Below are positions 13,733 through 55,271 of a stretch of 64,000 nt of DNA, piece by piece (the first letter of the stretch is position 1; every line of letters starts with the position of its first letter). The notes under the pieces were generated by a model, which saw only the letters and a list, made by a program, of their open reading frames with translations, was not told the DNA's origin and searched no databases. Source of the DNA: a virus; IMG/VR virus record IMGVR_UViG_3300027865_000007. One strand, 5' to 3'. The position numbers and the translations under genes were made by a program.

Positions 13733-14080
13733 ATGGAAAAGCCAGCCACCGACGTACTCGGGAAGCATCTAGAGACCAGGGACTATGTCCTATTCCCAAC
13801 AGGGACAGGGTATATCCTAGGGGTTGTAGCCGAGGTCAATCCTACCCAGCACCCGCGGCATGGAACTGTTAGGGTCATCCATCCGTACAAAGGCTACTCT
13901 CTCCACATAGGCAAGGATACAATCACCCGCTGGGGTAGCAAATGGAAGCGAAACCATACCCTAGTCAAGCTAACACAGCACGATATTGAATGTCCTGATC
14001 TTAGGATAGAGAACAAGCTAGACAATCTAGTAGACCTCCTCGAAGAGAAGAGGGTATGGCTAAAGGATAACCCGGCATAG
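13733..14080 (+). CDS. hypothetical protein (paralogue of previous gene)
   Basis: MEKPATDVLGKHLETRDYVL vs MQKPPTDALGAVIELGDYVL. Confidence 0.5.
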   Translation: MEKPATDVLGKHLETRDYVLFPTGTGYILGVVAEVNPTQHPRHGTVRVIHPYKGYSLHIGKDTITRWGSKWKRNHTLVKLTQHDIECPDLRIENKLDNLVDLLEEKRVWLKDNPA

Positions 14081-14145
14081 CTCAGCTGGCCAGAGCCGGC
14101 GTTTCTAATGCGCCGTGTGCCCGGGTTCGAATCCTGGTGCCGGGT
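14071..14145 (+). tRNA. tRNA with anticodon CUA (amber suppressor-type), C1-G72, short variable loop; no encoded CCA
   Basis: Manual cloverleaf: acceptor CCCGGCA/TGCCGGG; U8 A9; D-stem GCTC/GAGC; anticodon stem GGCGU/GCGCC; loop UUCUAAU (anticodon 14105-14107 = CUA); T-arm CCGGG-TTCGAAT-CCTGG. Confidence 0.7.
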
Positions 14146-14167
14146 CTAGAAGAAAACGGAGAGAAAG

Positions 14168-26086: not shown

Positions 26087-29000
26087 ATGGCAGCCTTTCA
26101 TCCCCCCGAGTCCACGACTGATCTTCTACATAATAGGTACTACCAGAAGGGCGAAGACTGGGAAGGGCTGTGCAGGCGAGTTGCTCACACGGCAGCCCAG
26201 GTAGAGCCCAAGAGTAAGAGAGCCGAGTGGGAGGGCAAGTTCTTCGAACTTCTCCACTCCGCCGAGGGCCTTCCTAATACCCCAGCCCTAGTAAACCTAG
26301 GTGCCAACCACGCTGGGTCAGTAGCAGCCTGCTTCTCTTTCAGACCAGACGACCATATGACCTCAATTATGGAGGTCTCTCGACTGGCTGCTATGACTCT
26401 AAAGTTTGGTGGCGGGGCAGGCTTCGAGTTATCCCTCCTTAGGCCTGCCGGATCTGCAGTTCAGTCCACCCACAAGCAGGCAATGGGCCCTGTTGGCGTG
26501 ATGAAGTTCTACAATTCTGTAGGCGATATGATCACCCAGGCAGGCATCCGTAAGGCTGCCCTCATAGCTATCCTTCGGATCGACCACCCCGATGTAATTC
26601 ACTTTATGCAGGCCAAGTCTGAGGACAAGCAGCTAGCCAACTTCAACATCTCTGTATCCATCACCGATGGGTTTATGAAGAAGCTCTCTAGCACCCCTGA
26701 GAGGCCCCACATCGCTCGTTTCGGTGGCAAGCAGTACTATATCCTTACCGATGGTACCGCCGTTCTGAAGGCCGAAAGAGGCTCAAAAGAGGTCCTCTCA
26801 GTAGAAGATACTTGGAACCTCCTCTGTGAGGGCGGCTCGCTGAATGGGGATCCAGGCATCTACTTTGTAGACCACGCCAACAAGAACAATCCTCTGCTGG
26901 AGACTCCTGGAGACACAGAGAGCCCCTACTATCTCCATGGGACAAACCCATGTGTAACAGGAGACACTAGACTCCATACCCACCTAGGCCTTGTAAAGGC
27001 CAAAGACCTCTGTCAAAGAGGAGATACTCTAGAAGTTACGGTCGACAAGAGGGCCCTCGACCTGCAGGAGAAGGGTACAGAGAAACGACCGGCACTGCCG
27101 ATGGTTATGACAACCAAGGCCGCCCATATATTTCGGCTTAGGACAAAGGAAGGATACAACATCAAGGCCTCCCCCTGGCACGAATTTTACACTACGCGAG
27201 GAAAGTTGAGACTCGAGGAGGTCGAAGTAGGAGACAAGATTCTCATTCAGTCCGGCGAAGGCATATTCGGCCCAGCAGGAACGAAAGAACTCGGGACTAT
27301 CATCGGCCTGATAGCCGGTGACGGCTGTATATCAGATCGAGGGAAAGGCAAGCACGCTGCCGAGATAGACCTCTGGGGCAAGGACAAACCCCTAGCCGAA
27401 AGGCTAGTCAGGTGGGTAAATAACCTTATCGCAGGCTTGTCCCACAATGGTAGAGAGTACAAAGTTAGTGCCGTAAGGCCTAAAGGGACAGACAAAGTGG
27501 TCATCAGATCGACCATCCTGGCACGAGTACTTGCAGATTACTGGTTCACAAAAGAGACAAAGTACGACGTCCCAGAGGTCATATGGTCGGGTACTAGACC
27601 ATGTGTAGTAGGCTACCTACGAGGACTGTTCAGTGCAGACGGCACCGTAAACGCCAGTAGCGGAGGAAATAGCTGTTCCATTCGCCTATCCTCCAGTAAA
27701 CCCCTACTACTAGAGCAGGTCCAGATCCTGCTATCCAACTTCGGAATCTTCTCGAGAATCTACAAGCGCCGCGAAGCTGGAGAGCGTATGCTACCTGACG
27801 GTAAGGGCGGCAAGAAGGTTTACCAGTGCAACGCAGATTACGAGCTGATCATCGACGGAGAATCACGCGGGATCTTTATGGAAAAGGTTGGCTTCCTGCA
27901 GGACTATAAGAATAGCCGATACACGGAGTGGGCCAAAGGCAAGCTACTCCGCAAAACGCAGCAATTCACGGCAGAAGTGTCATCCTTCGAGTACATGGGA
28001 ACCGAGGAAGTCTACGATACCACACAGGAAGACCACAACACTGTGATCTTCAACGGCTTCGTCACAGGACAATGTGGAGAACTGCCTTTAGAGGCTAACG
28101 GGGCCTGCGTCCTCGGATGTGTAGACCTAGCAAAGTTTGTAGTAGAAGAAGAGTTAGACACCGAGCGTCTAGCCACTATATTCAGAACGATGTGTCGGCT
28201 GCTCGAGAATATGACAGACATATCCGAGTGGCCAGACGAGGTAATAAAAGAGACTGTCCTGCGGACAAGAAGAATTGGCGTTGGAGTTATGGGCTTTGCC
28301 TCTATGCTAGATAAGCTTGGCATTATGTATGGCTCTGACGAGTGCATTAAGATGATTGATATCGTCGGCTCCCTAAGAGAGACCGCTTGTGCCGAGGAGT
28401 CCAAGCAGCTAGCTAAGGAGAGAGGTAGCTATCCAGCCTCCATAAATGGCGAGAAGCATAGGAATGTTGCGAGGACTGTAATCGCCCCGACTGGGACACG
28501 GGCAATGATTGCCAATACCTCCTGGGGCATTGAACCTCATCTTTACTGGGCTTTCGAAGAGAGAAGGAATGACCAGAAGAGATTCAGATTCCTTCCGGCC
28601 GTTCACGAATACCTAGACGAAGATACTCTAGCAGACCTCAAAGAGAAGGCGGACGGAAACCTAGAACATCTGAACAATATGATTCAGAGCCAGCTACCAC
28701 TCCATATGACCACGGCCAGGGATCTTTCCCCCGACGCACACCTAAGAGTTGTAGCTCAATGGCAGAGGTACACAGACTCTGCCGTATCAAAGTGCCTATC
28801 CGAAGGCACTTTAGTTCACACGAACAAAGGTATTCTTCCGATAGAGCAGCTCGGGGGTGCTTTCACCCCAGACAAAGTCGCCAAACCTCTCGAAGGACTG
28901 AAGGTTATAGACAAAGACGGGATTCCAAGGAAGGTAACTGCCCATTATTGCGCAGGAAAACTTCCCACAAGACGAATCAGGCTTTCGAACGGATCCACTC

Positions 29001-30619
29001 TCTCAGGCGCTCGCGAGACACATCGGGTTCTCACCCCAAGCGGATGGAAGAGACTCAAAGACCTTCGAGTAGGAGAGGCTGTTTTTGTTAGAGACCGCCA
29101 CCTGTCCCTCGGTAGTCTTGGAAAGAAACCCATCGACTCCGTAGAGATAAGCAGAAACTGCAAGCCAATCACAATCCCGGAAGAGATGTCCGTAGATCTA
29201 GCCTGTTGGCTGGGGATGGTCGCCGCAGACGGATACGTAATAACCAAAACGGGGAGCTCCTGGGTCCAGCTTACGGAAAAGAACCCCAAGGTAGGGAAGA
29301 GATTTGATACCCTGACACAGAAGATTTTTGGGAGGACCCCAAAAGTCAAAGTGGATGGTAGAAACGGAGTGATTTTGCATACAATACACTCCACCCCCTT
29401 AGCCCACTGGACAGAAGCGTTGATTGGAGACTCAGCAAGGACAAAGCACGCCCCGAAGCAAATTCTACACGGGTCTAAGGAAGAGAAGATTTCCTTCGCG
29501 GAGGGATTAACCCTTGATGGATATGTCCTCCCGCAGGGGTCAGGAGGCCTCGTCATCTATGGGGGAATTTCCAAAAGGCTAAGAGACGAAACCGCCGAGA
29601 TCTTGAGAAGTCTCGGTCTCCCGCAGGTAAGAAAGCGCGAAAAGAAAGTTCACGGGAGGAACTATAACTGCTACATAGTAGAGGTTAGGGAAGATCTTCA
29701 AGAGCTGATAGATCCAATCGAAAAGCACAAGAGCGTTTCCCCAAGTAGGAAAAGGTCTCTTGTGGGAATCGATCCGTCTGCGGTGGAGAACCTAAAGATT
29801 TCGTGCCTAGACCCTCGCTATAGAGGGTGGCTGTCTCTGCGAGCTAGGAAGAGAGATTACTGCTGGTCGACCACTGCGAGATCTCTAGAGCTCCAAGTTC
29901 TTGGTCGTGTGGAAAAGGTTACCCTTATTGAAGACCCAAGAGAGACCCAAATGTTCGACATCCAGGTCGAAGGAAATCATAGCTACCTTATCGACGGAAT
30001 CGTCTCCCACAACACAATCGTAGCTCCCTTCGAAGTTCTAACTCCTGAGAAGGTTAGCGAGATCTACCGCTTTGCTTGGGAGAGCAAACTCAAGGGTCTT
30101 ACGGTCTACCCAGAAGGCTCCCGTCAGGGAGAACCAATGAGTATTGGCAGGAAGAAGAAGACCCACGCTGGCCGACCGAAGAAGCTCCCAAGCGAGACTT
30201 ACGAAGAAGAGGTAATGATTGGCAGAGACCTTGTACAGGCCTTCTGCTTCGTAGGATTGAATCCCAAGAATCTAAAGGAGCCGGTCGAGGTTTTCCTAAA
30301 GCATCCCCACGTTGAGGATCCAACAGCCATTCAGTTCATCGATGTTCTCACCAGAATGATCTCCCTTGCTCTCAGACATAGACGGTGTCCGTCCTGCGGA
30401 GAAGAGGCCGTTCCGCTAGGTGAGATAATCAAACAACTCAGGAAGACCGATGGTCAGTCCCTCTATTCTGTCCCGGGCATCTTCGTAAAAGCGTTAGGCG
30501 AGTACCTAGGGCCAGGAGAATCAGTAGGGAAATGCCCCGACCACAAGTGCAAGGGCGAGCTAACTATAATCGAAGGCTGCCAGGTCTGTATGTCCTGTAA
30601 GTGGCGAGCCTGCGGCTAA
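26087..30619 (+). CDS. nrdJ: class II (adenosylcobalamin-dependent) ribonucleotide reductase interrupted by two inteins
   Basis: N-terminal LPNTPALVNLG...SVAACFSF...GGGAGFELSLLRP matches NrdJ. The NPCGE motif is split by insertion 1; the SK|T(INLP)-type motif by insertion 2. Extein is about 729 aa after removing both. Confidence 0.9.
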   Translation: MAAFHPPESTTDLLHNRYYQKGEDWEGLCRRVAHTAAQVEPKSKRAEWEGKFFELLHSAEGLPNTPALVNLGANHAGSVAACFSFRPDDHMTSIMEVSRLAAMTLKFGGGAGFELSLLRPAGSAVQSTHKQAMGPVGVMKFYNSVGDMITQAGIRKAALIAILRIDHPDVIHFMQAKSEDKQLANFNISVSITDGFMKKLSSTPERPHIARFGGKQYYILTDGTAVLKAERGSKEVLSVEDTWNLLCEGGSLNGDPGIYFVDHANKNNPLLETPGDTESPYYLHGTNPCVTGDTRLHTHLGLVKAKDLCQRGDTLEVTVDKRALDLQEKGTEKRPALPMVMTTKAAHIFRLRTKEGYNIKASPWHEFYTTRGKLRLEEVEVGDKILIQSGEGIFGPAGTKELGTIIGLIAGDGCISDRGKGKHAAEIDLWGKDKPLAERLVRWVNNLIAGLSHNGREYKVSAVRPKGTDKVVIRSTILARVLADYWFTKETKYDVPEVIWSGTRPCVVGYLRGLFSADGTVNASSGGNSCSIRLSSSKPLLLEQVQILLSNFGIFSRIYKRREAGERMLPDGKGGKKVYQCNADYELIIDGESRGIFMEKVGFLQDYKNSRYTEWAKGKLLRKTQQFTAEVSSFEYMGTEEVYDTTQEDHNTVIFNGFVTGQCGELPLEANGACVLGCVDLAKFVVEEELDTERLATIFRTMCRLLENMTDISEWPDEVIKETVLRTRRIGVGVMGFASMLDKLGIMYGSDECIKMIDIVGSLRETACAEESKQLAKERGSYPASINGEKHRNVARTVIAPTGTRAMIANTSWGIEPHLYWAFEERRNDQKRFRFLPAVHEYLDEDTLADLKEKADGNLEHLNNMIQSQLPLHMTTARDLSPDAHLRVVAQWQRYTDSAVSKCLSEGTLVHTNKGILPIEQLGGAFTPDKVAKPLEGLKVIDKDGIPRKVTAHYCAGKLPTRRIRLSNGSTLSGARETHRVLTPSGWKRLKDLRVGEAVFVRDRHLSLGSLGKKPIDSVEISRNCKPITIPEEMSVDLACWLGMVAADGYVITKTGSSWVQLTEKNPKVGKRFDTLTQKIFGRTPKVKVDGRNGVILHTIHSTPLAHWTEALIGDSARTKHAPKQILHGSKEEKISFAEGLTLDGYVLPQGSGGLVIYGGISKRLRDETAEILRSLGLPQVRKREKKVHGRNYNCYIVEVREDLQELIDPIEKHKSVSPSRKRSLVGIDPSAVENLKISCLDPRYRGWLSLRARKRDYCWSTTARSLELQVLGRVEKVTLIEDPRETQMFDIQVEGNHSYLIDGIVSHNTIVAPFEVLTPEKVSEIYRFAWESKLKGLTVYPEGSRQGEPMSIGRKKKTHAGRPKKLPSETYEEEVMIGRDLVQAFCFVGLNPKNLKEPVEVFLKHPHVEDPTAIQFIDVLTRMISLALRHRRCPSCGEEAVPLGEIIKQLRKTDGQSLYSVPGIFVKALGEYLGPGESVGKCPDHKCKGELTIIEGCQVCMSCKWRACG
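26951..28072 (+). mobile_element. intein 1 in nrdJ, inserted within the NP|CGE active-site motif, with LAGLIDADG-like homing endonuclease region
   Basis: Starts CVTGDTRLHT right after HGTNP. Contains IIGLIAGDGCISD (LAGLIDADG-like). Extein resumes CGELPL. C-terminal intein residues would be ...NGFVTGQ (Gln-terminal); alternative end at DHN (28039) cannot be excluded. Confidence 0.65.
28793..30013 (+). mobile_element. intein 2 in nrdJ with LAGLIDADG-like endonuclease region
   Basis: Begins CLSEGTLVHT after DSAVSK, ends ...YLIDGIVSHN followed by Thr (+1). Contains WLGMVAADGYVI motif. Flanks reconstitute SAVSK|TIVAP. Confidence 0.8.
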
Positions 30620-30627
30620 GGAGAGAA

Positions 30628-30915
30628 ATGTGCACTAACTGGACTGATGAGTATATTGGCAGAAGTAGTACTGCCGAAGCAAAAGAGAGGCTTAGAGTTT
30701 CTCTAGAGATTGCCGTAGAGAGAGCCCTCCTCCAGATGGTCGAGGCCGGTGCTATCTTCAGGCCCAACATCGATGTCGAGGTCAATGATAAGACCGGCAT
30801 TGCACACTTTCGCATCGCCTACATTGTGCCAAGCAACCACATCAAGATAGAAATTGTGCTCGACGAGCCGGAGGAGAGAGACCCAATGGCTCTTCTGAAG
30901 AAGGCGCTGGGATAG
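30628..30915 (+). CDS. hypothetical protein
   Basis: ATG 30628 with AAGGAG RBS. Confidence 0.4.
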   Translation: MCTNWTDEYIGRSSTAEAKERLRVSLEIAVERALLQMVEAGAIFRPNIDVEVNDKTGIAHFRIAYIVPSNHIKIEIVLDEPEERDPMALLKKALG

Positions 30916-30918
30916 GTA

Positions 30919-31095
30919 ATGAGCGCACCCAACGAGGAGTGGCCCACAACCGATGAGATCTGCTGCAGCGAGCCACTTCTCTCCAAACCTTCTGGTGAAG
31001 GAGTGTGGTGGAGTTGGTCCGACCTAATCCCACCCCAAGAACCCCGAGAGTTCCTGGAACTCTTCATTGAACTTCTAAAGGAAACCGCTAGGTAA
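30919..31095 (+). CDS. small hypothetical protein (58 aa)
   Basis: MSAPNEEWPTTDEICCSEPLL...; fills the gap before the kinase gene. Confidence 0.25.
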   Translation: MSAPNEEWPTTDEICCSEPLLSKPSGEGVWWSWSDLIPPQEPREFLELFIELLKETAR

Positions 31096-31097
31096 GA

Positions 31098-32042
31098 ATG
31101 CCATCAATTGTTGTAGTAGGCGACCTCCTAATCGACCGGTACCTCTACTGTACCCCTAAAGGCCTCTCTCCAGAGGCCCCCATCATATCTATGGATGTGG
31201 ATGAGATTGTTAGCAAGCCGGGCGGGGCAGCTAACGTAATGATGAACCTCCTCGCGCTAAGCAGGCTCCATACAGAGAGAGGCGAGAAGAATGAGGTAGA
31301 GATCAAGTACGTTGGGCCCGTACCAGAGATGCTCTGGACTATCCTCCGCCAGATAAAGGTAGAGGAGCACTTCAACTACTATGCCGGGAGGGCATACCAA
31401 GCCACCGTGAAGAGCCGGATTATCTTCAGAGAACCGTACCAACAGATCATAAGGTTCGACGAGGACAGGAAGACTCCAGTCTCGAAGATAGACGAGGACA
31501 CAATCGTCGCGATGCTCAAGGATAAGAGCTACGACATTGGCCTTGTGTCAGACTACAACCACGGTTCCATCTCCCAGGAAGTATACGATGCGGTCAGGAG
31601 GTCTTGTACTAGAGTTTTAGTTGACCCCAAAGGTGGCAACCCGCGCAAATACCAGGACGCAACCCTCATCACGCCAAATACGGAGGAACTGGGGACTCTG
31701 ACCGGACACCGGCCCTGGTCTCCGGGGAAGGACGAGGCAAGAAAGCTACAGGCCTGGTGTGGTGGCGCAGACGTCATCCACAAGGTGGGAGAGCATGGGT
31801 GCATCCACTATACTGAGAAGAGCGACCCCGTAGTCTATCTGGCATATAGAAATGGGCACGCAGTCATAGATCCGACAGGTGCAGGAGATACCTTCATTGC
31901 TATGCTAGCCTGGTGCTTCAGTCTCGACATCCCAACAGACAAAGCTATCAAAGCGGCAACTAGACTGGCGGGTATAAGCGTAACCCAACCAGGATGTTTC
32001 GTTCCCGAAGACAAAGACTATACAGATGCCCTCTATCCTTGA
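31098..32042 (+). CDS. pfkB-family sugar kinase, D-glycero-beta-D-manno-heptose-7-phosphate kinase-like (HldE/RfaE domain I type)
   Basis: VVVGDLLIDRYLYC...LSPEAP N-terminus and C-terminal DPTGAGDTF motif. Confidence 0.7.
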   Translation: MPSIVVVGDLLIDRYLYCTPKGLSPEAPIISMDVDEIVSKPGGAANVMMNLLALSRLHTERGEKNEVEIKYVGPVPEMLWTILRQIKVEEHFNYYAGRAYQATVKSRIIFREPYQQIIRFDEDRKTPVSKIDEDTIVAMLKDKSYDIGLVSDYNHGSISQEVYDAVRRSCTRVLVDPKGGNPRKYQDATLITPNTEELGTLTGHRPWSPGKDEARKLQAWCGGADVIHKVGEHGCIHYTEKSDPVVYLAYRNGHAVIDPTGAGDTFIAMLAWCFSLDIPTDKAIKAATRLAGISVTQPGCFVPEDKDYTDALYP

Positions 32043-32430
32043 GAAGACTGTAGCCGTTACTGGGTGCTACCAAATATTGCACCGAGGCCACGTTATTCTT
32101 CTGGAGAAGTGCAGGAAGCTAGGCAAGCTGACGGTTCTGCTCAACAGCGACGAGAGTGTGCTGAGGCTCAAGAACTATCTCGCAGAATCCTGGGAGACAA
32201 GACGCGATAACCTACTAGCTACAGGGCTAGTAGATAGGGTTCTAAGCATCGAAGATGATCCAACCATAATGATTTGGTTCCTCAAGCCAGACATTCTAGT
32301 AGCAGGAGACGACCACGACTATAGTGCCATTATGAGCAGGGGAGGGAAGTACGCAGGTGAAGTTATAACCTTCCCATACACTGAGGGGATCTGCTCGACA
32401 GATCTCTACAAGAAAAGTAAGAAGGAATGA
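32026..32430 (+). CDS. cytidylyltransferase-fold heptose-1-phosphate adenylyltransferase-like (HldE/RfaE domain II type)
   Basis: VAVTGCYQILHRGH (HxGH NTase motif) ... LNSDESVLRLK ... KPDILVAGDD. Confidence 0.7.
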   Translation: MPSILEKTVAVTGCYQILHRGHVILLEKCRKLGKLTVLLNSDESVLRLKNYLAESWETRRDNLLATGLVDRVLSIEDDPTIMIWFLKPDILVAGDDHDYSAIMSRGGKYAGEVITFPYTEGICSTDLYKKSKKE

Positions 32431-33209
32431 ACGCACCATACGAGAAGATCATAGTAAAGCTTAGATTCTCCGATGACTATTTCACCGCTAGGGTATCGTC
32501 CTCCTTTGGTAAGCTCCAAACAAAGAAGCGGGTAGAGTGCCTGGACGCTGACCTGACAGCACGTTTCTGGGGACGAGATAGCATCCAGAAGATACAGGAT
32601 GTTCTTGGTCTCACAACATCAGAAAAGATCTCGCTCAGGAACGGACAAACCCTCGGCAAGTACATTCCCCAAACCCTTATGGAGTCGTGGGTCAGGCAGA
32701 GGAAGGAAGCGCGAGTCAAAAGGGAAGATACCGTCCGGAGAATTGAGAAGGTCCTCACCGCCTTACACAAACTCTTCCTAAAAGATCGACGCTATAGAAG
32801 GGCTGCCCAGGGACAGGTTAGCTCTGATATAATGCCATATATGGACGGTTCTACCCTTCTCTGGCTGAGTGTTATCCTCTCGGCAAAGAAGGATTTCCTA
32901 AGATATCACGACGATCCGGATAGAGACGAGATCGAGGACTACAAAACCGCCCGGGACTTTCTCCTTGATGAGGACTACCACATTGACCTTGACCTTCCCG
33001 AACAGAGAGATAAAGGGAAGGGTAAGTTCGTCAATCTGAGAGACCTCCTAGACTTCTGTATTGAGAACTGCCGGGGAAGAAAACTAGATACAGGCCTGAT
33101 AGATCCGTCCACTGAACATCTTAGATCCTCCCTTGCTAAAGCCGCAGGAGATCCTAAACTAATAGCAAAGTACTGTAGAGAAAAAGATTTAGATACTGCC
33201 GCAGCGTAG
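32427..33209 (+). CDS. hypothetical protein
   Basis: 260-aa ORF. Confidence 0.45.
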   Translation: MNAPYEKIIVKLRFSDDYFTARVSSSFGKLQTKKRVECLDADLTARFWGRDSIQKIQDVLGLTTSEKISLRNGQTLGKYIPQTLMESWVRQRKEARVKREDTVRRIEKVLTALHKLFLKDRRYRRAAQGQVSSDIMPYMDGSTLLWLSVILSAKKDFLRYHDDPDRDEIEDYKTARDFLLDEDYHIDLDLPEQRDKGKGKFVNLRDLLDFCIENCRGRKLDTGLIDPSTEHLRSSLAKAAGDPKLIAKYCREKDLDTAAA

Positions 33210-33237: not shown

Positions 33238-33597
33238 TTGTCTAAAGGGGTAAAGCACGACCAAAATAAGACCCGCTGGAGCCTACTGCCGTGGCGAGAA
33301 GTCGAAGAGATCGTGCGAGTCCTTATGCACGGGAGCAGGGAATACAACGACTACAACTGGCAGAAGGTCGAGAATGGGAGAGAACGATACTTCAACGCCG
33401 CGAAGAGACACCTCTTAGCGTGGTGGCAGGGAGAGAGACCCGACCCGGAGAGCAAACTCCCCCACCTAGCTCACGCAGCTTGCTGCATCCTATTCCTAAT
33501 GTGGCTGGACAACGAGGAGGATCGCAAAGAGTATACTAAGCTTTTCACAGACGACGAAGACACTTTCGAAGACGATAAAGACCAGAGACATAACTAA
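33238..33597 (+). CDS. dATP/dGTP diphosphohydrolase N-terminal domain-like protein (MazG-partner domain, DUF5664-like)
   Basis: KHDQNKTRWSLLP ... YNDYNW ... RHLLAWWQGERPDPESKLPHLAHAACCILFL follows the conserved pattern of this phage-associated domain. Confidence 0.5.
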   Translation: MSKGVKHDQNKTRWSLLPWREVEEIVRVLMHGSREYNDYNWQKVENGRERYFNAAKRHLLAWWQGERPDPESKLPHLAHAACCILFLMWLDNEEDRKEYTKLFTDDEDTFEDDKDQRHN

Positions 33598-35761: not shown

Positions 35762-35941
35762 ATGGACAAATGGACAGAGATTTTCGAAGTCATCGAGAAG
35801 GCGCCGCTAGACAGTCGAATCAGAAGAAGAACCCTACTCTTCCTCAAGCTTGCCAAGGAAAAGTACTCACAGGAGATCTGCGACGAGATCATCAGTAGCA
35901 TAAAGAAGGAACTAGAGGAGATAAGAAAGGGTCTCAACTAA
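35762..35941 (+). CDS. small hypothetical protein (59 aa)
   Basis: ATG 3 nt after UDG stop; TAATG overlap with dnaE piece 1. Confidence 0.35.
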   Translation: MDKWTEIFEVIEKAPLDSRIRRRTLLFLKLAKEKYSQEICDEIISSIKKELEEIRKGLN

Positions 35942-36849
35942 TGGCTGAATTTGTACACCTTCATCTTCACTCAGATAGATCGCAACTTGACTCTATAATC
36001 CAGATCCCCAAGCTGATACCCCTCTGTAGAGAACAAGGAATGAGGGCTGTAGCCATCACCGATCACGGCGTGGTATCGGCTGCTATCAGGCTGTACGAGG
36101 AGGCGCGGAAGGAGAAGGATAAAGATGACAACCCTGTGGCGCCCATCAAGCCCATCATAGGCTGTGAGCTTTACCTAGCTCCTACAGATGACCATACGCT
36201 CCGCGAGCCACTGGAAGGTCATCCACCGCAACAGTGCTATCACCTTACGGCCCTAGCAAAGAACGCGGCGGGAGTCTCACAGCTATATCAACTCTCCTCG
36301 CTGGGTTATCTAGAGGGCTACTACTACAAGCCTAGAGTCTCTATCAAGCAGATCGAAGAGATCGGGAAAGACCTCATACTCCTAGGGGCTTGTGCCAAAG
36401 GCCCCGTCAGCTGGAGTCTTCGGAACGACAACCGAGCCCAAGCAGGGGAGTACCTGGCTCGTCTCCGCGACTCATTCAAGGACAGGTTCTACCTAGAGCT
36501 TATGTACCACGGGCTCCGCTTCCAGGAAGTACTAAACGAAGAGCTTCTAGAGATGTCCAGACTCTACGAGGTACCCTGGATCCCAACGAACGATGCTCAC
36601 TTCCTATCTAGGGAAGATCACTACGAGCACTCTCTAATGATGTGTCTCCAGCTGAAGAAGACTCTTCCAGAACTCGACGAAGCTAAGATGCGCTACCCAA
36701 CTGAGTGCTATGTGAAGAGTCCGGAGGAGATGGAGTCATACTGGGGTGAAGACGCCTGTAGAAGGACGCTTGAGATAGCAGAGCAGGTGGACATAACCCT
36801 AGAGCTAGACAAACAACGCTTCCCTCTTTACTCTGAGCCCGATATCTAG
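35941..36849 (+). CDS. dnaE: DNA polymerase III alpha (DnaE) fragment 1: PHP domain only
   Basis: FVHLHLHSDRSQLDS ... AVAITDHG ... IIGCELY ... HYHLTALAKN; ends at the position where piece 2 resumes in DnaE alignment. Confidence 0.85.
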   Translation: MAEFVHLHLHSDRSQLDSIIQIPKLIPLCREQGMRAVAITDHGVVSAAIRLYEEARKEKDKDDNPVAPIKPIIGCELYLAPTDDHTLREPLEGHPPQQCYHLTALAKNAAGVSQLYQLSSLGYLEGYYYKPRVSIKQIEEIGKDLILLGACAKGPVSWSLRNDNRAQAGEYLARLRDSFKDRFYLELMYHGLRFQEVLNEELLEMSRLYEVPWIPTNDAHFLSREDHYEHSLMMCLQLKKTLPELDEAKMRYPTECYVKSPEEMESYWGEDACRRTLEIAEQVDITLELDKQRFPLYSEPDI

Positions 36850-36868: not shown

Positions 36869-37753
36869 ATGAAGGATAGGACTTGTCAGATCGAGTGGTG
36901 CTCTTCCCCTATAGATAGGAAAGGGCTCTGCACTAGACACTACACCCAGCAATGGAGACACGGCCGGATCATTCCTAAAGGGAAGGAACGCCCCACAAGA
37001 AGGTTCGACCCAAGCGAAAAGGTCGAGATCAAATGTCCAGTATGTGAAGAGACATACAAGATCGGGCTGCCTTACTATCTCCACAGAGTACGAAACGGTA
37101 AGTATAGCCAATGCCACAAATGCTCACACAAGCTCCGCGTGGCAGACCTTCCATTAAATAAGAAGGTCGAGAAAGGTGTCATCGAGAAGCTTCCGGACGG
37201 CTCGACCGTTCACTGGGGCGACTTCACATACCGCAAAGGGGGAAGACTATTCAAAGTCCTATGCCGAGAGGGATGTCAAGGAAGAAAAGAGCGTAGGTGC
37301 CAGCCAACCTCACTTCTGAAAGGAAAGGGTCTGTGCATATCCTGCGCCATGCTCCGCCACCATAATGGAGGAAAGTTCCCAGAAGTTGGGGATAAGAGGC
37401 ACACCAGCACAGGATACACAGACATATACCTAGGAGCCAACTCACCTGAATGTCTCCACTCCAAGGCAGGATGGGTACCGGAACATCGGGCTGTATGGCT
37501 GGCTCATTTCCCAGAGGATAAGGAGAAGCTAGCCGACGGGTTTCACGTACACCATAAAGACGGCAACCAGACGAATAATCTAATAGAGAACTTGGCCTTG
37601 CTCTCCAGAAGCGACCACACTAAGTATACCTCCCGGCTCTCAAGCAGGCTTATGACGCTTCTAAATAACGGGGAGATTAAGATAGATAGTAAGCAGGCGG
37701 GACTAGAAGACATTCTATCCATCAACGACTGCTTCCCAGAATACTCGGAGTAA
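36869..37753 (+). CDS. HNH endonuclease (free-standing homing-endonuclease-like)
   Basis: Cys-rich N-terminus (CQIEWC...GLCTRHY) and C-terminal HVHHKDGNQTNNLIENLALLSRSDHTK HNH motif. Confidence 0.8.
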   Translation: MKDRTCQIEWCSSPIDRKGLCTRHYTQQWRHGRIIPKGKERPTRRFDPSEKVEIKCPVCEETYKIGLPYYLHRVRNGKYSQCHKCSHKLRVADLPLNKKVEKGVIEKLPDGSTVHWGDFTYRKGGRLFKVLCREGCQGRKERRCQPTSLLKGKGLCISCAMLRHHNGGKFPEVGDKRHTSTGYTDIYLGANSPECLHSKAGWVPEHRAVWLAHFPEDKEKLADGFHVHHKDGNQTNNLIENLALLSRSDHTKYTSRLSSRLMTLLNNGEIKIDSKQAGLEDILSINDCFPEYSE

Positions 37754-38391: not shown

Positions 38392-39006
38392 ATGAAACCA
38401 ATCTACAAGGAGGACTTCCGTACCATTAGAGCTAACACCTTCAGCGGGGTTAGGGTCAATGATTCTCAGCTAAGCGACGAGCCTACAGACATCTCGGCCT
38501 GGTTTGGAGGAGAGAATATCGGCTGCGTGCAGGAGGTCAACCTACAGATAACCAAGCAAATACTCCCTCCATATATGAGCAACCCAGACCCTAGGACTTT
38601 CAGCAAGGGCCAACAGGCTTTCGCAGGCAGTCTTACCTTCATCAACCTCAACAGAGATCTGGTCGCAGAGAAGCTAAGGGAGGAGATCCTCTACCCAGAC
38701 ATCCCCGCGATCAAAGAGGGAGATCCCTTCCCGCAAATCAAACTTGGTTCGTGCGAGTGTACGACTATCGAGGACTACCACCTAGATCAGTTCCCTCCAT
38801 TCGACATCGTCATAAGCCTAAGCAGCTTCCAAATGGTCATAGCGGGCGCAGAACTTCTCGTCGAGGGTTGGAGTTGCTGCATTGATGGGGTAGAGACAGA
38901 AAGGTCGCTTACCTATCTCGCCAGGAACTTCTTTATGCGCCCAATTCCGAGGGAGACAGAGACCAAGTCCGAAGATCCCTTCAATCTCCTAAAGAAACTG
39001 CTGTAA
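38392..39006 (+). CDS. hypothetical protein ending in conserved C-terminal tail DPFNLLKKLL
   Basis: C-terminus shared with 61455-61829 and 63273-63680. Confidence 0.5.
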   Translation: MKPIYKEDFRTIRANTFSGVRVNDSQLSDEPTDISAWFGGENIGCVQEVNLQITKQILPPYMSNPDPRTFSKGQQAFAGSLTFINLNRDLVAEKLREEILYPDIPAIKEGDPFPQIKLGSCECTTIEDYHLDQFPPFDIVISLSSFQMVIAGAELLVEGWSCCIDGVETERSLTYLARNFFMRPIPRETETKSEDPFNLLKKLL

Positions 39007-39010
39007 CCGA

Positions 39011-39394
39011 ATGCCGACTAAGCTCTACGAACCTTCGTATGTCAACCAGCCGGCAGATGGATCTTACCACGGTCTAGAGAAGGTAATGACTCAGTACTCT
39101 AACGGTACCGGTTTTAGTAAAGAAGACTTCGTCAACCCGCCAACCGATGGAGAGACCCAAAAGCTAACGGCTATGATCACGAAGATCTTCGAAGATCATA
39201 GCAAGGCGATCAATAAGGCGATCACCGACGAGCTCAAAGACTATTCCATCTCTGCCAAGAAGGCTTCGAAGCCGGCAGTAGTAGATCAATCAGGCAATGG
39301 CAACCACGGTGTAATTACCCCAGAAACCAAAAGCCCGCGGACTAGAACTCAGAGAGTCAAAGACCGGATGAAAGAGAAGTTCTTCACCGAATGA
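39011..39394 (+). CDS. hypothetical protein
   Basis: 127-aa ORF. Confidence 0.45.
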   Translation: MPTKLYEPSYVNQPADGSYHGLEKVMTQYSNGTGFSKEDFVNPPTDGETQKLTAMITKIFEDHSKAINKAITDELKDYSISAKKASKPAVVDQSGNGNHGVITPETKSPRTRTQRVKDRMKEKFFTE

Positions 39395-40062
39395 AACCTA
39401 TCTTCATCGAAGCAACGACACTAAGCGACGCATGGTTTCAAGCCCTCGATGCCGTAATGGATCACGGTAGAGTATGGACTGTAGATCACGGTTCCTATAT
39501 AGGACAGGATAGATGGGAGCTAGACTACGTTACGATTCACGTCAAAGACCCGGGAGCAAGACCTCTAATACCAGAGATCCCACCCGGACTAGCAATCCCG
39601 CCGCCGGTGAGCGACGAGTACGTTGAGGATTATCTTCCATACCTGATGACCGACCATAGGGAGCCAGGAGAGCAATACACCTATGGCGAACGCCTGAAGC
39701 CTCAAATGGAAGAGATCATAAGAAGGTATAAGAAGCACGGGTTTGGTTCCAATCAGGAGTGCATTGCCATAGCTAAACCAGAGGACATTATGTTAGATGA
39801 TCCTCCGTGCCTCAGACAGATAGACACCAGGATCTACAAAGACGAATGTCGTGAGGGCCCCGCCACCCTCCACTTCGTCTGCTACTTCAGGAGCTGGGAT
39901 CTATGGGGTGGATTCCCCGCGAACCTAGCAGGGATAAGGCTCGTCCAGGAATATATGGCTCTAGAGATTGGAGTCGAGGCAGGCGAGATGATTGTTGCAT
40001 CTAAAGGACTACATATCTACGACCATGCCTGGGATGTAGCTAAGATCAGAACTGCGAGATAG
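39391..40062 (+). CDS. thymidylate synthase (ThyA)-fold protein, short divergent form (TS or pyrimidine hydroxymethylase candidate)
   Basis: DPPCLRQID (PCH-like nucleophile region) and YFRSWDLWGGFPANLAGIRLVQEYMA (YQRSxD..G.PFNIASY-like). Confidence 0.6.
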   Translation: MKPIFIEATTLSDAWFQALDAVMDHGRVWTVDHGSYIGQDRWELDYVTIHVKDPGARPLIPEIPPGLAIPPPVSDEYVEDYLPYLMTDHREPGEQYTYGERLKPQMEEIIRRYKKHGFGSNQECIAIAKPEDIMLDDPPCLRQIDTRIYKDECREGPATLHFVCYFRSWDLWGGFPANLAGIRLVQEYMALEIGVEAGEMIVASKGLHIYDHAWDVAKIRTAR

Positions 40063-40777: not shown

Positions 40778-40862
40778 GGAAGGGTGACCGAGTCAGGCCG
40801 ATGGTGCACGCCTGAAGCGTGTGGTCCGAAAGGGCCCGTAGGTTCAAATCCTACTCCTTCCG
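40778..40862 (+). tRNA. class II (long variable arm) serine-type tRNA whose anticodon reads GAA (Phe)
   Basis: Acceptor GGAAGGG/UCCUUCC (as in tRNA-Ser), G73; D-arm ACCG-AGTCAGGCCGA-TGGT; anticodon arm CACGC-CUGAAGC-GUGUG (anticodon 40814-40816 GAA); variable hairpin with GAAA loop; T-arm GTAGG-TTCAAAT-CCTAC. Aligns base-for-base with the tRNA-Ser(GCU) at 42203. Confidence 0.6.
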
Positions 40863-40876
40863 CCGAGAGAAGGTAA

Positions 40877-41239
40877 ATGAAGCATCTGCTAGGAATCCTA
40901 CTTGCTCTAATCATCTCATTCCCAATCGTTTCCTATGCAGAACTAGAACCTCCCCTACCAGAGAGGTTCACCACAATGACCCTTGCCGGTGCCTCAACTT
41001 TTTCTCTAGGCATTGGGCTACTAACTACAGCCCTACTAACTACACAGTGGGAACCAATCGAAGCCTCGGCAGAGATCCTTGGTACAACCTTCATAGGGGT
41101 ACTAGAACCAGACAACCCCGCCGGGCTATGGGTTGTATACGGAATAGCAGGGGCAGCAATCTTAGCTGGGATCATTATTATCGTGATAGACTCCATCTAT
41201 CGGGCACTTAGAAGATGCCGGCGTAGCTCCAATGATTAG
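40877..41239 (+). CDS. membrane protein with signal peptide
   Basis: Signal peptide then two TM segments. Confidence 0.45.
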   Translation: MKHLLGILLALIISFPIVSYAELEPPLPERFTTMTLAGASTFSLGIGLLTTALLTTQWEPIEASAEILGTTFIGVLEPDNPAGLWVVYGIAGAAILAGIIIIVIDSIYRALRRCRRSSND

Positions 41240-41301
41240 AGCGAGGCTTTCGTAAAGCTTAGGTGTTGGTTTGACTCCAACCGCCGGCTCCAGGAGGAAC
41301 A

Positions 41302-41637
41302 ATGCTATCAGTGAAGTTCACCGAGAAAGACTGCGAATATCTCAACACATATGATGCTTTCTCTGCAGACTGGTATGAGGAACTAGCTAGCAAATGTTCC
41401 TGCGCACCCAGAGAGCTGAGAACGCTCGGCCTATTCGACCTAATCGATAGGCTAGACGAGGAGAAAGATTTTCTCGTAGTCCTGCAGTTCAACTCGCTAC
41501 CCGTTAGGCCCTGGTTCGAACCTGAAGGAGGATATGCATCAGTTGGCACCACCAAAACAACCGTCGATAGTCCCGCCGCAACCAAAGAAGAAGCCAAAGA
41601 GAAAGAAGCCCCGAAAGCCAAAGAGGAAAGGCAATGA
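41302..41637 (+). CDS. hypothetical protein
   Basis: 111-aa ORF with KE-rich tail. Confidence 0.4.
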   Translation: MLSVKFTEKDCEYLNTYDAFSADWYEELASKCSCAPRELRTLGLFDLIDRLDEEKDFLVVLQFNSLPVRPWFEPEGGYASVGTTKTTVDSPAATKEEAKEKEAPKAKEERQ

Positions 41638-41665
41638 GAGACAATAAAAGCTGCCTCAACTGCAA

Positions 41666-41902
41666 GTGGTGGCCAGGGAACTGGCCCGACACTATCTTAT
41701 ATCCGGATGGTATGGGGTTGAGCAGGACGAGCTCGTAGAGATCCTGGTGATACACGAGCCCCACGTGAATGTTAGGAGCAACGACGGCAGAGACCTCTGC
41801 TTGCCAAAAAGCATACTGATATCCGTAGCTGAGGAGAAGACTCCCCCAGCACCAAAGAAGAAGAAAGAGGCAAAGCCTGGCCCCAATGGGTTCTATATTT
41901 AG
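41666..41902 (+). CDS. hypothetical protein
   Basis: 78-aa ORF. Confidence 0.35.
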   Translation: MVARELARHYLISGWYGVEQDELVEILVIHEPHVNVRSNDGRDLCLPKSILISVAEEKTPPAPKKKKEAKPGPNGFYI

Positions 41903-41906
41903 ATAA

Positions 41907-41983
41907 GCCCGAGTCGCCTAGCTGGTATGGCGTCAGGTTTCCAACCTGAAATAAGATCGGTTCGAGTCCGTTCTCGGGTTCCA
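41907..41983 (+). tRNA. tRNA-Gly (anticodon UCC), CCA encoded
   Basis: Acceptor GCCCGAG/CUCGGGU (G1-U72), D-arm GCC-AGCUGGUA-GGC, anticodon arm UCAGG-UUUCCAA-CCUGA (anticodon 41940-41942), T-loop TTCGAGT (one U-U mismatch in stem), CCA at 41981-41983. Confidence 0.7.
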
Positions 41984-41995
41984 AGGAGAAGAGAG

Positions 41996-42196
41996 ATGTA
42001 TACACTAGAAGAAGCACGAGAAGCCAAGGAAGAGTTCAAGAAGCTTTACCCCGGCATCACCGTCGGGGTCGGGGCCTTGCCCGAGCCTCATCTTGCAGTT
42101 AGGGTTCAAAGTAAGTCAGACCTGCTGAGGATGCCTGCCGAGGTACTAGGCGTTACGGTGCAAGCTATTCTTACCGATGTACCAAGGGCATACTAA
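41996..42196 (+). CDS. hypothetical protein
   Basis: ATG 41996 with AAGGAG RBS right after the tRNA. Confidence 0.35.
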   Translation: MYTLEEAREAKEEFKKLYPGITVGVGALPEPHLAVRVQSKSDLLRMPAEVLGVTVQAILTDVPRAY

Positions 42197-42202
42197 GCCC
42201 AT

Positions 42203-42291
42203 AGAGAGGTGGCCGAGTCAGGCTTATGGCACCGTCCTGCTAAGGCGGAGGCCCCGAAAGGGGTCCGTGAGTTCGAATCTCACCCTCTCTG
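42203..42291 (+). tRNA. tRNA-Ser (anticodon GCU), class II
   Basis: Acceptor AGAGAGG/CCUCUCU, G73; D-arm GCCG-AGTCAGGCTTA-TGGC; anticodon arm CCGUC-CUGCUAA-GGCGG (anticodon 42239-42241); long variable hairpin GGCCCC-GAAA-GGGGUCC; T-arm GTGAG-TTCGAAT-CTCAC. Confidence 0.8.
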
Positions 42292-42303
42292 CTAGGAGTA
42301 AAG

Positions 42304-47864: not shown

Positions 47865-48120
47865 TGCCTACCCGTGGGAAGTTCGAGTACTTCTAACTGA
47901 GGAAGCTCTCAAGAGAGATGCAGCAGTAATAGACATCCTCGACGAGCTTGTATCTACAAGTCTCGCCTACCATTGTCCATACTGTGGGAAGAGAAAACCG
48001 TTCGAGACCTGTCGGTCTTGCAAATATCTAGAGAGCTGTATTGAAGGCGGCGTGCTGGGATGCCCCGGCTGCCTGAATTGCGAAGGTATAAGTGGAAAAC
48101 TCCGAGCTGTTGAGGACTAA
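47851..48120 (+). CDS. small Cys-rich zinc-binding protein
   Basis: CPYC ... CRSC ... CPGCLNC. Confidence 0.35.
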   Translation: MKESDAYPWEVRVLLTEEALKRDAAVIDILDELVSTSLAYHCPYCGKRKPFETCRSCKYLESCIEGGVLGCPGCLNCEGISGKLRAVED

Positions 48121-49726
48121 AGCCCTCGCAGGACTAGAAGAGAGAGGGCTCTCAGGTAAGCAAGAGTATGTAGACCGCCTAGAGTATGAACTCGAAACCA
48201 TTGAGAAGCTAGGATTCACGACCTACTTCCTTGTGATGTGCGACATCGTGAGGTTTGCCAGAGAGAACGACATCCTCTATGGCCCCGGTCGCGGGAGCGG
48301 AGCTGGAAGTCTACTGAACTACTGCCTAAAGATCACGCTCATCGACCCACTAAAGTACGGGCTCCACTTCGAGAGGTTCCTGAACCCCAATAGGGTATCT
48401 CCACCAGACATTGACTGGGACACCGCCGATCGAGGTAGAATTATTGAGTATCTCGAGGGAAAGTACGGTAAGGACAGAGTCGCTCGCGTGGGTACAGTCA
48501 ACTTCCTGAGAACGAAGAGCGCTATCAGAGACATCGGTAGAGTCCTTGAGAAAGAGTTCAAGTTCATAGACAACCTAGCTGAGCTTGTACCTCCGCCCGT
48601 CGCCGGCCTCTGGGATAGTTTTGACCGGGAGGCTGAGGTCGAGCCAGAACTCCTCTCGTCTAGGTACCAAGAGATCATAGACCCCACTAGGAAGCTCTGG
48701 GGGGTACTCAGGAGCTATGGTACACACGCAGGAGGGGTTGCTATAGCCCCCATACCAATCAGCGAGATGGCGCCCCTCTACAAGGATAAGGACGGTAATC
48801 CAGTCTCTCAGTTCGACTGGAGAGACCTCGAGAAGGCAGGGCTACTCAAGTTCGATATCCTAGGGCTAAACACCTTGGAGGTAATCCAGCTGACCCTGAA
48901 ATATCTGAAGGTCGACGCGATAGACCTTGATCTAGAGAGTCTCGAGGACGGAGACCCAGACGCATACAAGATGATTTGCAGCGGCGATCTTGATGGGGTA
49001 TTCCAGCTCGGCGGGAGTGAGTCAATCAAGCAGCTCACAGTCTCTATGTCTCCCAAATGCATTGAGGATCTCGCCCTTGTGACGAGTCTCTACCGCCCAG
49101 GCCCTCTATCTAGTGGAATGGTCGATGGCGCCGTGAGGGTCAAGCAAGGGAAGGCTACTCCTAAGTACATCGACCCCATACTTGCCCCAATCTTGGACGT
49201 GACGCACGGCGTTCCTGTCTTCCAGGAACAGATTATGAATATCTGCACTGACCTATGTGGGTATACCCTTCCCGAAGCAGACAAGATGCGGAAGATTGTA
49301 GGTAAGAAGCTCAAGAAAGAGATGCCCAAACAGAAGAAGATGTTCGTGGAAGGAGCCATTGCAAATGGGGTACCTCGGAGCGGAGCCGAAAAACTTTTCG
49401 GACAGATAGAGGATTACGCTCAGTACCTGTTCAACAAGACACACGCAGTCGCTTACTCCGTAATAACGTACTGGACGGCATACCTAAAGGCCCATCATCC
49501 AATAGCTTTCTACGCTAGCCTCCTCGCTTGCGAGAAACATCCAGACAAGAGAACGCAGTACGCGAGCACGATCAAAACGGCGGGGATAGACATTCTTCCA
49601 CCCGATGTAAATCTATCGGGCTTCTATCACCAGCCAGAGGGAAACGCAATCAGGTTTGGCCTCAGCCACATCAAAGGGATGGCCACGGCTACCGCTCAAG
49701 AGATCGTAGACCTTAGAAATGACTAG
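48092..49726 (+). CDS. dnaE: DNA polymerase III alpha (DnaE) fragment 2: palm/thumb/fingers core
   Basis: GFTTYFLVMCDIV ... GPGRGSGAGSLLNYCL ... FERFLNP ... PDIDWD and later blocks; starts exactly where piece 1 ends in DnaE alignment. Confidence 0.9.
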   Translation: MENSELLRTKALAGLEERGLSGKQEYVDRLEYELETIEKLGFTTYFLVMCDIVRFARENDILYGPGRGSGAGSLLNYCLKITLIDPLKYGLHFERFLNPNRVSPPDIDWDTADRGRIIEYLEGKYGKDRVARVGTVNFLRTKSAIRDIGRVLEKEFKFIDNLAELVPPPVAGLWDSFDREAEVEPELLSSRYQEIIDPTRKLWGVLRSYGTHAGGVAIAPIPISEMAPLYKDKDGNPVSQFDWRDLEKAGLLKFDILGLNTLEVIQLTLKYLKVDAIDLDLESLEDGDPDAYKMICSGDLDGVFQLGGSESIKQLTVSMSPKCIEDLALVTSLYRPGPLSSGMVDGAVRVKQGKATPKYIDPILAPILDVTHGVPVFQEQIMNICTDLCGYTLPEADKMRKIVGKKLKKEMPKQKKMFVEGAIANGVPRSGAEKLFGQIEDYAQYLFNKTHAVAYSVITYWTAYLKAHHPIAFYASLLACEKHPDKRTQYASTIKTAGIDILPPDVNLSGFYHQPEGNAIRFGLSHIKGMATATAQEIVDLRND

Positions 49727-54650: not shown

Positions 54651-55271
54651 ATGACAAAACGTAGAATTCTACTCGATATGGACGACGTTCTCGCCCGCTG
54701 CGTCGACTACTGGCTCGAACAACTAAACAAGACCCACAACCTAAGCCTCTGCAAGGCAGACATATCCAACTGGAATATGTCCAAGAACCCAGAGGTCCGC
54801 GCTACAGGGCTTACCTACGACGAAATCTTTGCCCCGATGGGTAAAAAAGGATTCTTCTTCGAATTGCCTGTTATGGAGGGCGCCCAAGAGGGTGTCCAGG
54901 ATCTCATCGATAACTTCGGGGAAGTAGTGATCGTTACTAGCCTTCCTAGCGATATCTACCGCCCAGGCGAAGTGACTCAGGAAAAGCTTGACTGGTTGCG
55001 AAAATACTTCCCCTACTTCAGCAAGACAAGAAACATAGTAATGACGAAGAGAAAGGGCCTTGTGAAAGGCGACTTGCTGATTGACGATGCTCCGCATAAC
55101 ATCTTGGAGTATCCTGGTAAGACTGTCGTCTTCGACCAGCCCTACAATCAGGGGGTCGCGGCGACAGCAAGAGTAGCGAACCAACCAGGGTCTCCAGCCT
55201 GGGAGAGAGTGCTAGAGACCTGCCTAGATATCTTTGCGAAGGAGACTGATGAGCGTCCGTACCCAGTTTGA
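54651..55271 (+). CDS. 5'(3')-deoxyribonucleotidase (HAD superfamily, NT5C-like)
   Basis: N-terminal ILLDMDDVLA (DxD nucleophile motif) and LLIDDAPHN. Confidence 0.55.
   Translation: MTKRRILLDMDDVLARCVDYWLEQLNKTHNLSLCKADISNWNMSKNPEVRATGLTYDEIFAPMGKKGFFFELPVMEGAQEGVQDLIDNFGEVVIVTSLPSDIYRPGEVTQEKLDWLRKYFPYFSKTRNIVMTKRKGLVKGDLLIDDAPHNILEYPGKTVVFDQPYNQGVAATARVANQPGSPAWERVLETCLDIFAKETDERPYPV

Follow-up and report, generated by a model that had tools for sequence, protein, structure and literature searches.

Genes resembling bacterial HldE are already annotated in cyanophages, both in GenBank and in PHROGs (PHROG 7878 and 8133), and one has also been described as an auxiliary metabolic gene of a cave-pool phage. 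Among phage systems directed at DNA, a metagenomic phage gene cluster ('contig 53'), whose products are a kinase of HAD/APH-like type, a cytidylyltransferase and a GT-B enzyme, yields mono- and di-heptose on 5-hydroxymethylcytosine (5hmC) in E. coli (bioRxiv 10.1101/2023.12.21.572611), and the arabinosyl-5-hydroxycytosine (arabinosyl-5hoC) pathway of RB69, DLP3 and HY126 comprises an isomerase, an anomeric kinase, a HAD phosphatase and a nucleotidyltransferase (NTase) (PMC13326640). Here we analyse a locus of the IMG/VR virus record IMGVR_UViG_3300027865_000007 that encodes an HldA-like kinase, an HldC-like NTase and a third protein, termed X. The whole stretch analysed, hereafter the window, spans 64 kb of a genome that probably exceeds 200 kb. 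The kinase/NTase pair as such is already known from phages, and what is new is the (GmhA)-kinase-NTase-X unit lying within replication genes. The pair is probably central to an operon of three to four genes, (GmhA-like)-kinase-NTase-X, specific to a single lineage of huge phages.

Organisation and conservation of the locus

An earlier note on this DNA, made from the sequence alone, had described two adjacent, overlapping genes encoding the halves of a split HldE. Both open reading frames (ORFs) were confirmed on the plus strand, and a third gene of the unit, overlooked in that note and fused to the NTase in some relatives, was identified at 32427..33209. The locus comprises the following features, the slot being the interval between the gene for ribonucleotide reductase (RNR) and the kinase gene:

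31098..32042, plus strand: HldA-like pfkB sugar-phosphate kinase, 314 amino acids (aa), stop codon TGA
32026..32430, plus strand: HldC-like NTase with a cytidylyltransferase fold, 134 aa, predicted heptose-1-phosphate nucleotidyl (probably adenylyl) transferase
32427..33209, plus strand: protein X, 260 aa, lineage-restricted partner of the NTase with no recognised fold
30601..31095, plus strand: RNR/kinase slot, with two small ORFs (30601..30915, 104 aa; 30919..31095, 58 aa)

The kinase and NTase reading frames overlap by 17 nucleotides (nt), and the ATG of X overlaps the TGA of the NTase gene (ATGA, 4 nt), with X ending in a TAG stop codon. The two motifs quoted for the pair were located in the translated ORFs, with DPTGAGDTF at kinase residues 258-266 (nt 31869-31895) and HRGH at NTase residues 19-22 (nt 32080-32091). 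A metagenome gene caller starts the NTase (P0132) at residue 18, 17 codons after the ATG at 32026, but the latter is the better start, because the later one removes the first beta-strand (VAVTGC), which is kept in all relatives. Kinase and NTase are indeed encoded by separate genes, as the term split HldE implies, but there is nothing unusual in this arrangement, since bacteria also have separate HldA and HldC.

Metagenomic contigs, the longest of 245 kb, carry homologs with 36-51% identity; the large contigs of the lineage include JGI Ga0452216_000005 (245 kb) and IMGVR_UViG_3300037067_013742 (229 kb). Ten of these loci were read (L002-L005, L008-L010, L030, L032 and L033), including a 229-kb IMG/VR viral contig (L010) that is syntenic with the window. 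The order RNR, kinase, NTase, X (~260 aa), MazZ-like gene and RecA is conserved in the lineage loci, and kinase-NTase-X was found in all of them wherever sequence was available. Successive genes of the cassette overlap by 4, 8 and 4 nt in L008, and no plus-strand promoter- or terminator-like site was detected in the stretch from RNR to RecA. The one-strand arrangement of genes, the intein-bearing RNR, the split DNA polymerase III (Pol III) alpha subunit, the HNH gene, the primase, five tRNAs and the syntenic 229-kb contig all support the assignment of the window to phage DNA, from a huge-phage lineage so far represented only in metagenomes. When the 14 kb surrounding the locus were compared with 50,697 phage records by megablast, no match was returned.

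Family assignment of the kinase and NTase

The families proposed in the earlier note, a pfkB kinase and a cytidylyltransferase, were recovered with Pfam matches beyond chance and above the gathering score (PfkB, E=1e-19; CTP_transf_like, E=1e-8). The top NCBIfam model for the kinase is rfaE_dom_I (163.1 bits, E=8e-48), with ribokinase as the next unrelated family at 54 bits, and other pfkB families align only to the C-terminal ATP half of the protein (residues ~160-300). Its closest solved structure is Burkholderia HldA (4e84, E=4e-21), matched over residues 4-300. For the NTase, the top NCBIfam model is rfaE_dom_II (74.3 bits, E=8e-21), followed by glycerol-3-phosphate cytidylyltransferase at 42 bits, and the closest solved structure is Burkholderia HldC (BpHldC; 5x9q, E=3e-10). 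The same preference holds across the lineage, with HldE models scoring best for 17/17 kinases (best E=7e-50) and 13/13 NTases. The alternative raised at the outset, that of a ribokinase and a generic cytidylyltransferase, thus trails the HldE models by ~110 bits for the kinase and ~32 bits for the NTase.

The window kinase retains 52 of the 73 columns conserved at a level of at least 85% in 105 bacterial HldE/HldA kinases. The pfkB catalytic apparatus is intact both in this protein and in its lineage, encompassing D264 of the GAGD motif (261-264), N194/E197 of NxxE, G42-G43 within GGAAN (42-46) and D9/D13. Also retained are motifs typical of HldE, namely the SPEAP lid (24-28), TxKxR (K105/R107), QQxxRxD (115-121, with Q116/R119/D121), SDY (151-153) and DPK (176-178). 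The HldA-like protein is a predicted heptose-7-phosphate kinase that would act on O1. The lineage also presents its own switches (G18C, R22G, K155H, T229K, V259P and V266F), and in all its members T102 is replaced or missing, as is a 'G.D' segment. The lineage kinases are monophyletic (200/200 neighbour-joining bootstraps) and show ~29% identity to bacterial kinases and ~28% to those of the cyanophage type. The best match in a GTDB scan with the kinase was a 30%-identical protein from a Bdellovibrionales metagenome-assembled genome, and the others were generic pfkB kinases sharing DPTGAGDTF.

The NTase retains HxGH (H19-R-G-H22), NSD and an ISTT-type motif (GICST). Its 'PYTEGICST' segment aligns with 'PFEHDRSTT' of BpHldC and presents a Tyr at the adenine-stacking position of F143. 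Docking on BpHldC, with no substrate complex behind it, has assigned heptose-1-phosphate contacts to five motifs (PMC7993394). Three loops with such a docking-predicted role differ in the window NTase, where TNG reads VTG, LKG..RP.N reads LKNYLAES with a two-residue deletion, and KGGDY reads AGDDHDY; ExTP is likewise changed, to EDDPT. The change from KGG to AGD is kept throughout the lineage as AG[DSN]DH. In one relative (L003, ~10950-11000) the NTase frame shifts between VTGC and FQLLH, so that this copy is frameshifted or pseudogenised unless the assembly is at fault.

Protein X is a lineage-restricted partner of the NTase

Only 11 homologs of X were found in a collection of 5.8 billion proteins. 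Every one belongs to this lineage, and Pfam assigns a domain to none of them. Profile searches of PDB sequences, Pfam, PHROGs and PADLOC returned no meaningful match for X, and the same was true of the 50,697 deposited phage records and of GTDB genomes. A HMMER scan with the NTase identified, among its nearest representatives, three proteins of 376-427 aa that each join an N-terminal NTase to an X homolog, with BLASTP E-values for the X part of 6e-35, 1e-51 and 7e-46. These fusions occur in distant relatives and are independent, and on comparative grounds they argue strongly for X and the NTase acting together.

The fairly confident AlphaFold2 model of X (predicted local distance difference test score, pLDDT, 80.7) outlines a small alpha/beta domain, a long Arg/Lys-rich helix of 45 residues and, at the C-terminus, a helical domain. 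P0138, a natural NTase-X fusion, gave a model with pLDDT 56 and a predicted template modelling score (pTM) of 0.36, too poor for domain geometry to be read from it. Neither sequence nor fold similarity supports X as a known glycosyltransferase (GT-A or GT-B) or as a HAD phosphatase, and both candidates were rejected. On the explanation favoured below, X would be either the phosphatase or the transferase that the predicted pathway lacks.

The isomerase slot and the remaining pathway steps

A GmhA-like isomerase of the SIS family (SIS_2), 209-210 aa long, is encoded between RNR and kinase in two relatives (L002:9372-10004 and L008:8067-8696), that is, in two of the seven lineage loci with upstream sequence. 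In both, the gene overlaps that of the kinase by stop/start codons, an arrangement indicative of translational coupling. The best NCBIfam model for the two proteins is phosphoheptose isomerase/GmhA (87 and 78 bits, below cut-off), and they retain the motifs GNGGSH..AEHLT.EL, STSG and IQEVHQVYVH. The kinases of L002 and L008 share the lineage-specific substitutions of the window kinase. Because these GmhA-adjacent kinases carry them too, the substitutions are best read as the mark of a subfamily and provide no argument for another sugar. In turn, a GmhA-like isomerase gene directly upstream in two relatives speaks for heptose as the substrate sugar.

In L004 and L010 nothing separates RNR from the kinase, and in the window the slot holds the two small ORFs listed above, for which no Pfam or PADLOC match was obtained. 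A tblastn search with the GmhA-like protein of a relative detected no SIS remnant in the window. A pattern scan of IMG/VR with the lineage GmhA-like proteins, using an insensitive method, found none elsewhere in lineage genomes. The isomerase looks ancestral but dispensable, and would have been lost from the window phage, in keeping with the use of host GmhA.

Pfam labels for the window covered positions ~760-42000, and the larger ORFs of the 42-64 kb region were scanned separately. The absence of visible GmhA and GmhB genes reported in the earlier note was borne out over this range, with no SIS or GmhB-type family among Pfam labels and ORF scans. A search for the pathway partners and glycosyltransferases that the note had called for recognised none in the 64 kb, and neither the window nor the 10 kb on either side of the locus in any relative yielded a GmhB-type phosphatase, a heptose epimerase (HldD) or a recognisable glycosyltransferase. 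Over these stretches, the complete ADP-heptose pathway (GmhA, HldA/E, GmhB, HldC/E and HldD) is not encoded together. The sole HAD-superfamily protein of the window is an NT5C-type deoxynucleotidase (54651..55271).

Genomic context

The window constitutes a block of replication and nucleotide-metabolism genes, with every gene on one strand. Downstream of the cassette lie genes for the MazZ-like protein, RecA, a family-4 UDG, split Pol III alpha, HNH, Metallophos and a ThyA homolog, followed further downstream by AAA+, WGR, NT5C and primase-helicase genes. Other genes encode ClpP, a Thg1-like protein, DNA ligase, RlaP, isochorismatase, SpoVG, Whirly and two deaminases, and there are five tRNAs. 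The main features of this context are:

4540-5423, plus strand: two adjacent deaminase-fold genes (dCMP_cyt_deam_1)
14071-14146, plus strand: tRNA with anticodon CTA ('tRNA-Pyl' in ARAGORN), an amber (UAG) suppressor just upstream of DNA ligase
26087-30619, plus strand: RNR large subunit, 1510 aa, with two inteins, one of them with a LAGLIDADG endonuclease, directly upstream of the cassette
33238-33597, plus strand: MazZ-like dATP/dGTP diphosphohydrolase domain protein (PF18909, E=3e-33), always after X in the lineage
35941-36849, 36869-37753, 48092-49726 and 49804-50889, plus strand: separate pieces of Pol III alpha, with a PHP domain and then an HNH endonuclease gene
39391-40062, plus strand: divergent ThyA homolog, 223 aa, with archaeal-type TIGR03283 as its best match (108 bits vs a cut-off of 174)
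40778-42292, plus strand: tRNA cluster (Phe-GAA, Thr-CGT, Gly-TCC and Ser-GCT) between the ThyA homolog and the AAA+ gene
54651-55271, plus strand: NT5C-type 5'-deoxynucleotidase (E=2.5e-31)

The RNR of relatives has zero or one intein and 729-1140 aa. The Pol III alpha piece with the core, finger and HhH regions lies 11 kb downstream of the PHP part and is followed by an OB-fold piece. The ThyA homolog retains the catalytic Cys and the uracil-specifying Asn, and ThyX occupies the syntenic position in L002, L008 and L009. Based on these residues it is probably a true dTMP synthase, and a dUMP-modifying activity may be entertained as an alternative. Together with the deaminases, NT5C and the MazZ-like protein, it points to a putative extensive reshaping of the deoxynucleoside triphosphate pool.

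A link of the MazZ-like gene to a Z-genome (PurZ/MazZ) was rejected, with no PurZ-like gene seen in the window, and a defence or anti-defence system was likewise rejected, with no PADLOC matches. The CTA tRNA may reflect recoding of TAG in some genes of this phage, as reported for some huge phages. A 204-aa protein encoded at 38392-39006 on the plus strand, within the replication block, matches a PHROG 'major head protein' family weakly and in part (E=1e-10). Arrays of paralogous ORFs of 55-80 aa with 'QVWxQVxDQV'-type repeats, absent from the window, flank the cassette in some relatives:

L003: 6904-9973 and 14694-18531
L005: 10993-11733 and 16714-18593
L002: 9166-9375 and 14398-15246

A predicted heptose-activation unit and its alternatives

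Membership of the kinase and NTase in their superfamilies and subfamilies, their catalytic and nucleotide-binding motifs, the operon, its synteny, the adjacency of GmhA-like genes and the NTase-X fusions are all computed properties of the locus. The explanation that we favour, and hold to be rather likely, is that, while the phage replicates, the cassette produces a heptose activated by a nucleotide, X being either the missing 7-phosphatase or the transferase. The operon would be transcribed together with the replication and nucleotide-metabolism genes. The isomerase step would be carried out by host GmhA in the window phage and by the phage-encoded protein in L002 and L008, after which the kinase would phosphorylate O1 to give heptose-1,7-bisphosphate. 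The 7-phosphate could then be removed by host GmhB, another phosphatase or X, and the NTase would couple heptose-1-phosphate to a nucleoside triphosphate (ATP, by analogy) to give the activated heptose. This product would be passed to a transferase, for which X is one candidate, and the acceptor could be DNA, the virion or the host surface. Which sugar and nucleotide are used, what X does and where the heptose ends up are inferences.

Several observations weigh against this explanation. Both proteins score less than half of the respective equivalog cut-offs (345 bits for the kinase model and 181.5 bits for that of the NTase). All kinases of the lineage differ from bacterial HldE/HldA at five positions with an invariance of at least 99% in the latter, among them the basic residues R22 and K155. 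In the NTase, two of the five docking-predicted motifs are clearly altered (N30T in TNG and K116A in KGG) and the 'KG..RP.N' loop is shorter. Furthermore, the searched neighbourhoods provide no known third step and no consumer of the product. Because both scores lie below the equivalog cut-offs and two NTase loops are changed lineage-wide, the exact sugar phosphate and nucleotide are tentative, and the original reading of the pair as HldE halves stands at the family level, where HldA and HldC provide the top models and closest structures.

The same low scores and the loss of the basic R22 and K155 would suit a kinase and NTase that have drifted to a different substrate, be it another aldose phosphate, a polyol phosphate (TagD-type) or a nucleoside or cofactor salvage substrate. 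TagD is the second-best family for the lineage NTases (best E 1e-15), and the window NTase is nearer to TagD than to HldC in two motifs ('AGDDHDY' vs 'MGDDWEG' and 'SWETR' vs 'SYEHR'); the isomerase, moreover, is absent from five of the seven lineage loci with upstream sequence. We nonetheless deem such a drift unlikely. HldE-specific lid motifs are retained in a kinase that matches HldE over its whole length, whereas other pfkB families fit its C-terminal half only; two members carrying the same substitutions have a GmhA-like gene, its catalytic motifs intact, in translational coupling with the kinase; and the aromatic residue is retained at the adenine-stacking position. A specific version, NAD or cofactor salvage by a pfkB kinase and an NMNAT/PPAT-like NTase with isochorismatase nearby, was rejected on account of the full-length similarity to HldA and the GmhA-like neighbour in relatives.

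If the sugar is heptose, its destination could still be the host. The usual published interpretation of phage HldE-like genes is that of classical auxiliary metabolic genes, which here would raise host ADP-heptose for the lipopolysaccharide core or another surface glycan, leading to receptor change or superinfection block, and X would be unrelated to sugar chemistry. The genomes of P-SSM2-type phages fit this interpretation, holding NTase and kinase among tail-fibre and sugar-modifying genes, and so does a Pfam census of 137 ORFs neighbouring cyanophage-type genes in 15 viral loci, which returned glycan-type neighbours (15 epimerase/dehydratases, 10 cupins, 7 GT2 and 5 GT1 glycosyltransferases and 3 DegT aminotransferases). 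The apparent dependence on host GmhA and GmhB would also suit a heptose-making host. The lineage cassette, however, sits in the interval from RNR to RecA. None of its loci has a glycosyltransferase or epimerase within 10 kb on either side, and the lineage kinases and those of the cyanophage group form separate clades with 28% identity. The obligatory coupling of X and its occasional fusion to the NTase are also left unexplained, and we regard this interpretation as having a modest chance of being correct. The destination might instead be DNA, with an NDP-heptose or a related NDP-sugar (NDP, nucleoside diphosphate) glycosylating a hydroxylated base and X as a possible unrecognised DNA sugar transferase. 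Heptose on 5hmC provides a precedent (bioRxiv 10.1101/2023.12.21.572611), the arabinosyl-5-hydroxycytosine pathway has a like order of steps (PMC13326640), the cassette sits in a block with RNR, MazZ-like, RecA, UDG, Pol III, ThyA-like, two deaminase and NT5C genes, and the long helix of X is rich in Arg and Lys. Set against this, the 64-kb window presents no dCMP/dUMP hydroxymethylase signature, TET/JBP dioxygenase or recognisable DNA glycosyltransferase, X has neither a GT-A nor a GT-B fold, and the retained Cys and Asn of ThyA, together with ThyX in relatives, suggest ordinary dTMP synthesis. DNA hypermodification is in our view quite improbable.

Returning to the favoured explanation of a heptose-activating cassette, X would define a new family of enzymes were it shown to act as the transferase or as the missing phosphatase. 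We place only a small probability on its boldest form, in which X would be an enzyme of new fold and kinase, NTase and X a self-contained module that makes activated heptose and passes it to a target linked to replication, phage DNA being the most interesting case. Were that form true, it would establish a pfkB/HldC-based route to heptosylated DNA via a transferase or bisphosphate phosphatase unrelated to known GT or HAD enzymes. Either role of X, if borne out, would also reveal the use of activated heptose by huge phages, possibly in a new modification of DNA or virion relevant to the evasion of restriction and other defences. Even on a conservative view, the NTase-X fusions provide a concrete functional lead for an orphan family of phage proteins.

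Comparison with known systems

The phage DNA-glycan clusters for heptosyl-5hmC and arabinosyl-5hoC resemble the cassette in activating a sugar through an anomeric kinase and a nucleotidyltransferase, and in that their pathway enzymes are often fused. Their kinases, unlike that of the cassette, are APH- or protein-kinase-like rather than pfkB proteins, and they have a HAD phosphatase, a GT-B DNA glycosyltransferase and a base-hydroxylating enzyme, none of which was found in the window or the lineage neighbourhoods.

In the cyanomyophages (P-SSM2 PSSM2_309-311, P-SSM5, S-SM2 and SynMITS9220M01), separate, overlapping kinase and NTase genes also have HldE as their best match. There the NTase precedes the kinase, which is shorter (~250 aa) and keeps G18, R22, K155 and T229. 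These phages have no X, carry the genes in glycan clusters beside tail-fibre genes, and show ~28% identity to the lineage. In P-SSM2, the 114-aa product of PSSM2_311 (L007 7722-8066), annotated as 'phosphoheptose isomerase', matches HAD-type phosphatases (TIGR01689, E=1e-8; NF046079, E=3e-5) and no SIS/GmhA model, and may be a mis-named GmhB-like phosphatase.

With bacterial HldA, HldC and HldE the cassette shares the same two folds, the top families and the adjacency of its genes, as well as a GmhA-like gene upstream in two relatives. It departs from them in that the lineage forms a separate clade with ~29% kinase identity, replaced invariant positions and altered sugar-phosphate loops in the NTase, and in that no GmhB, HldD epimerase or heptosyltransferase was found around its loci, whereas bacteria have no X. 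The heptose genes of phages have so far been read in the literature as auxiliary genes for surface glycans; the present locus would instead represent a minimal heptose-activation unit set in a replication block.

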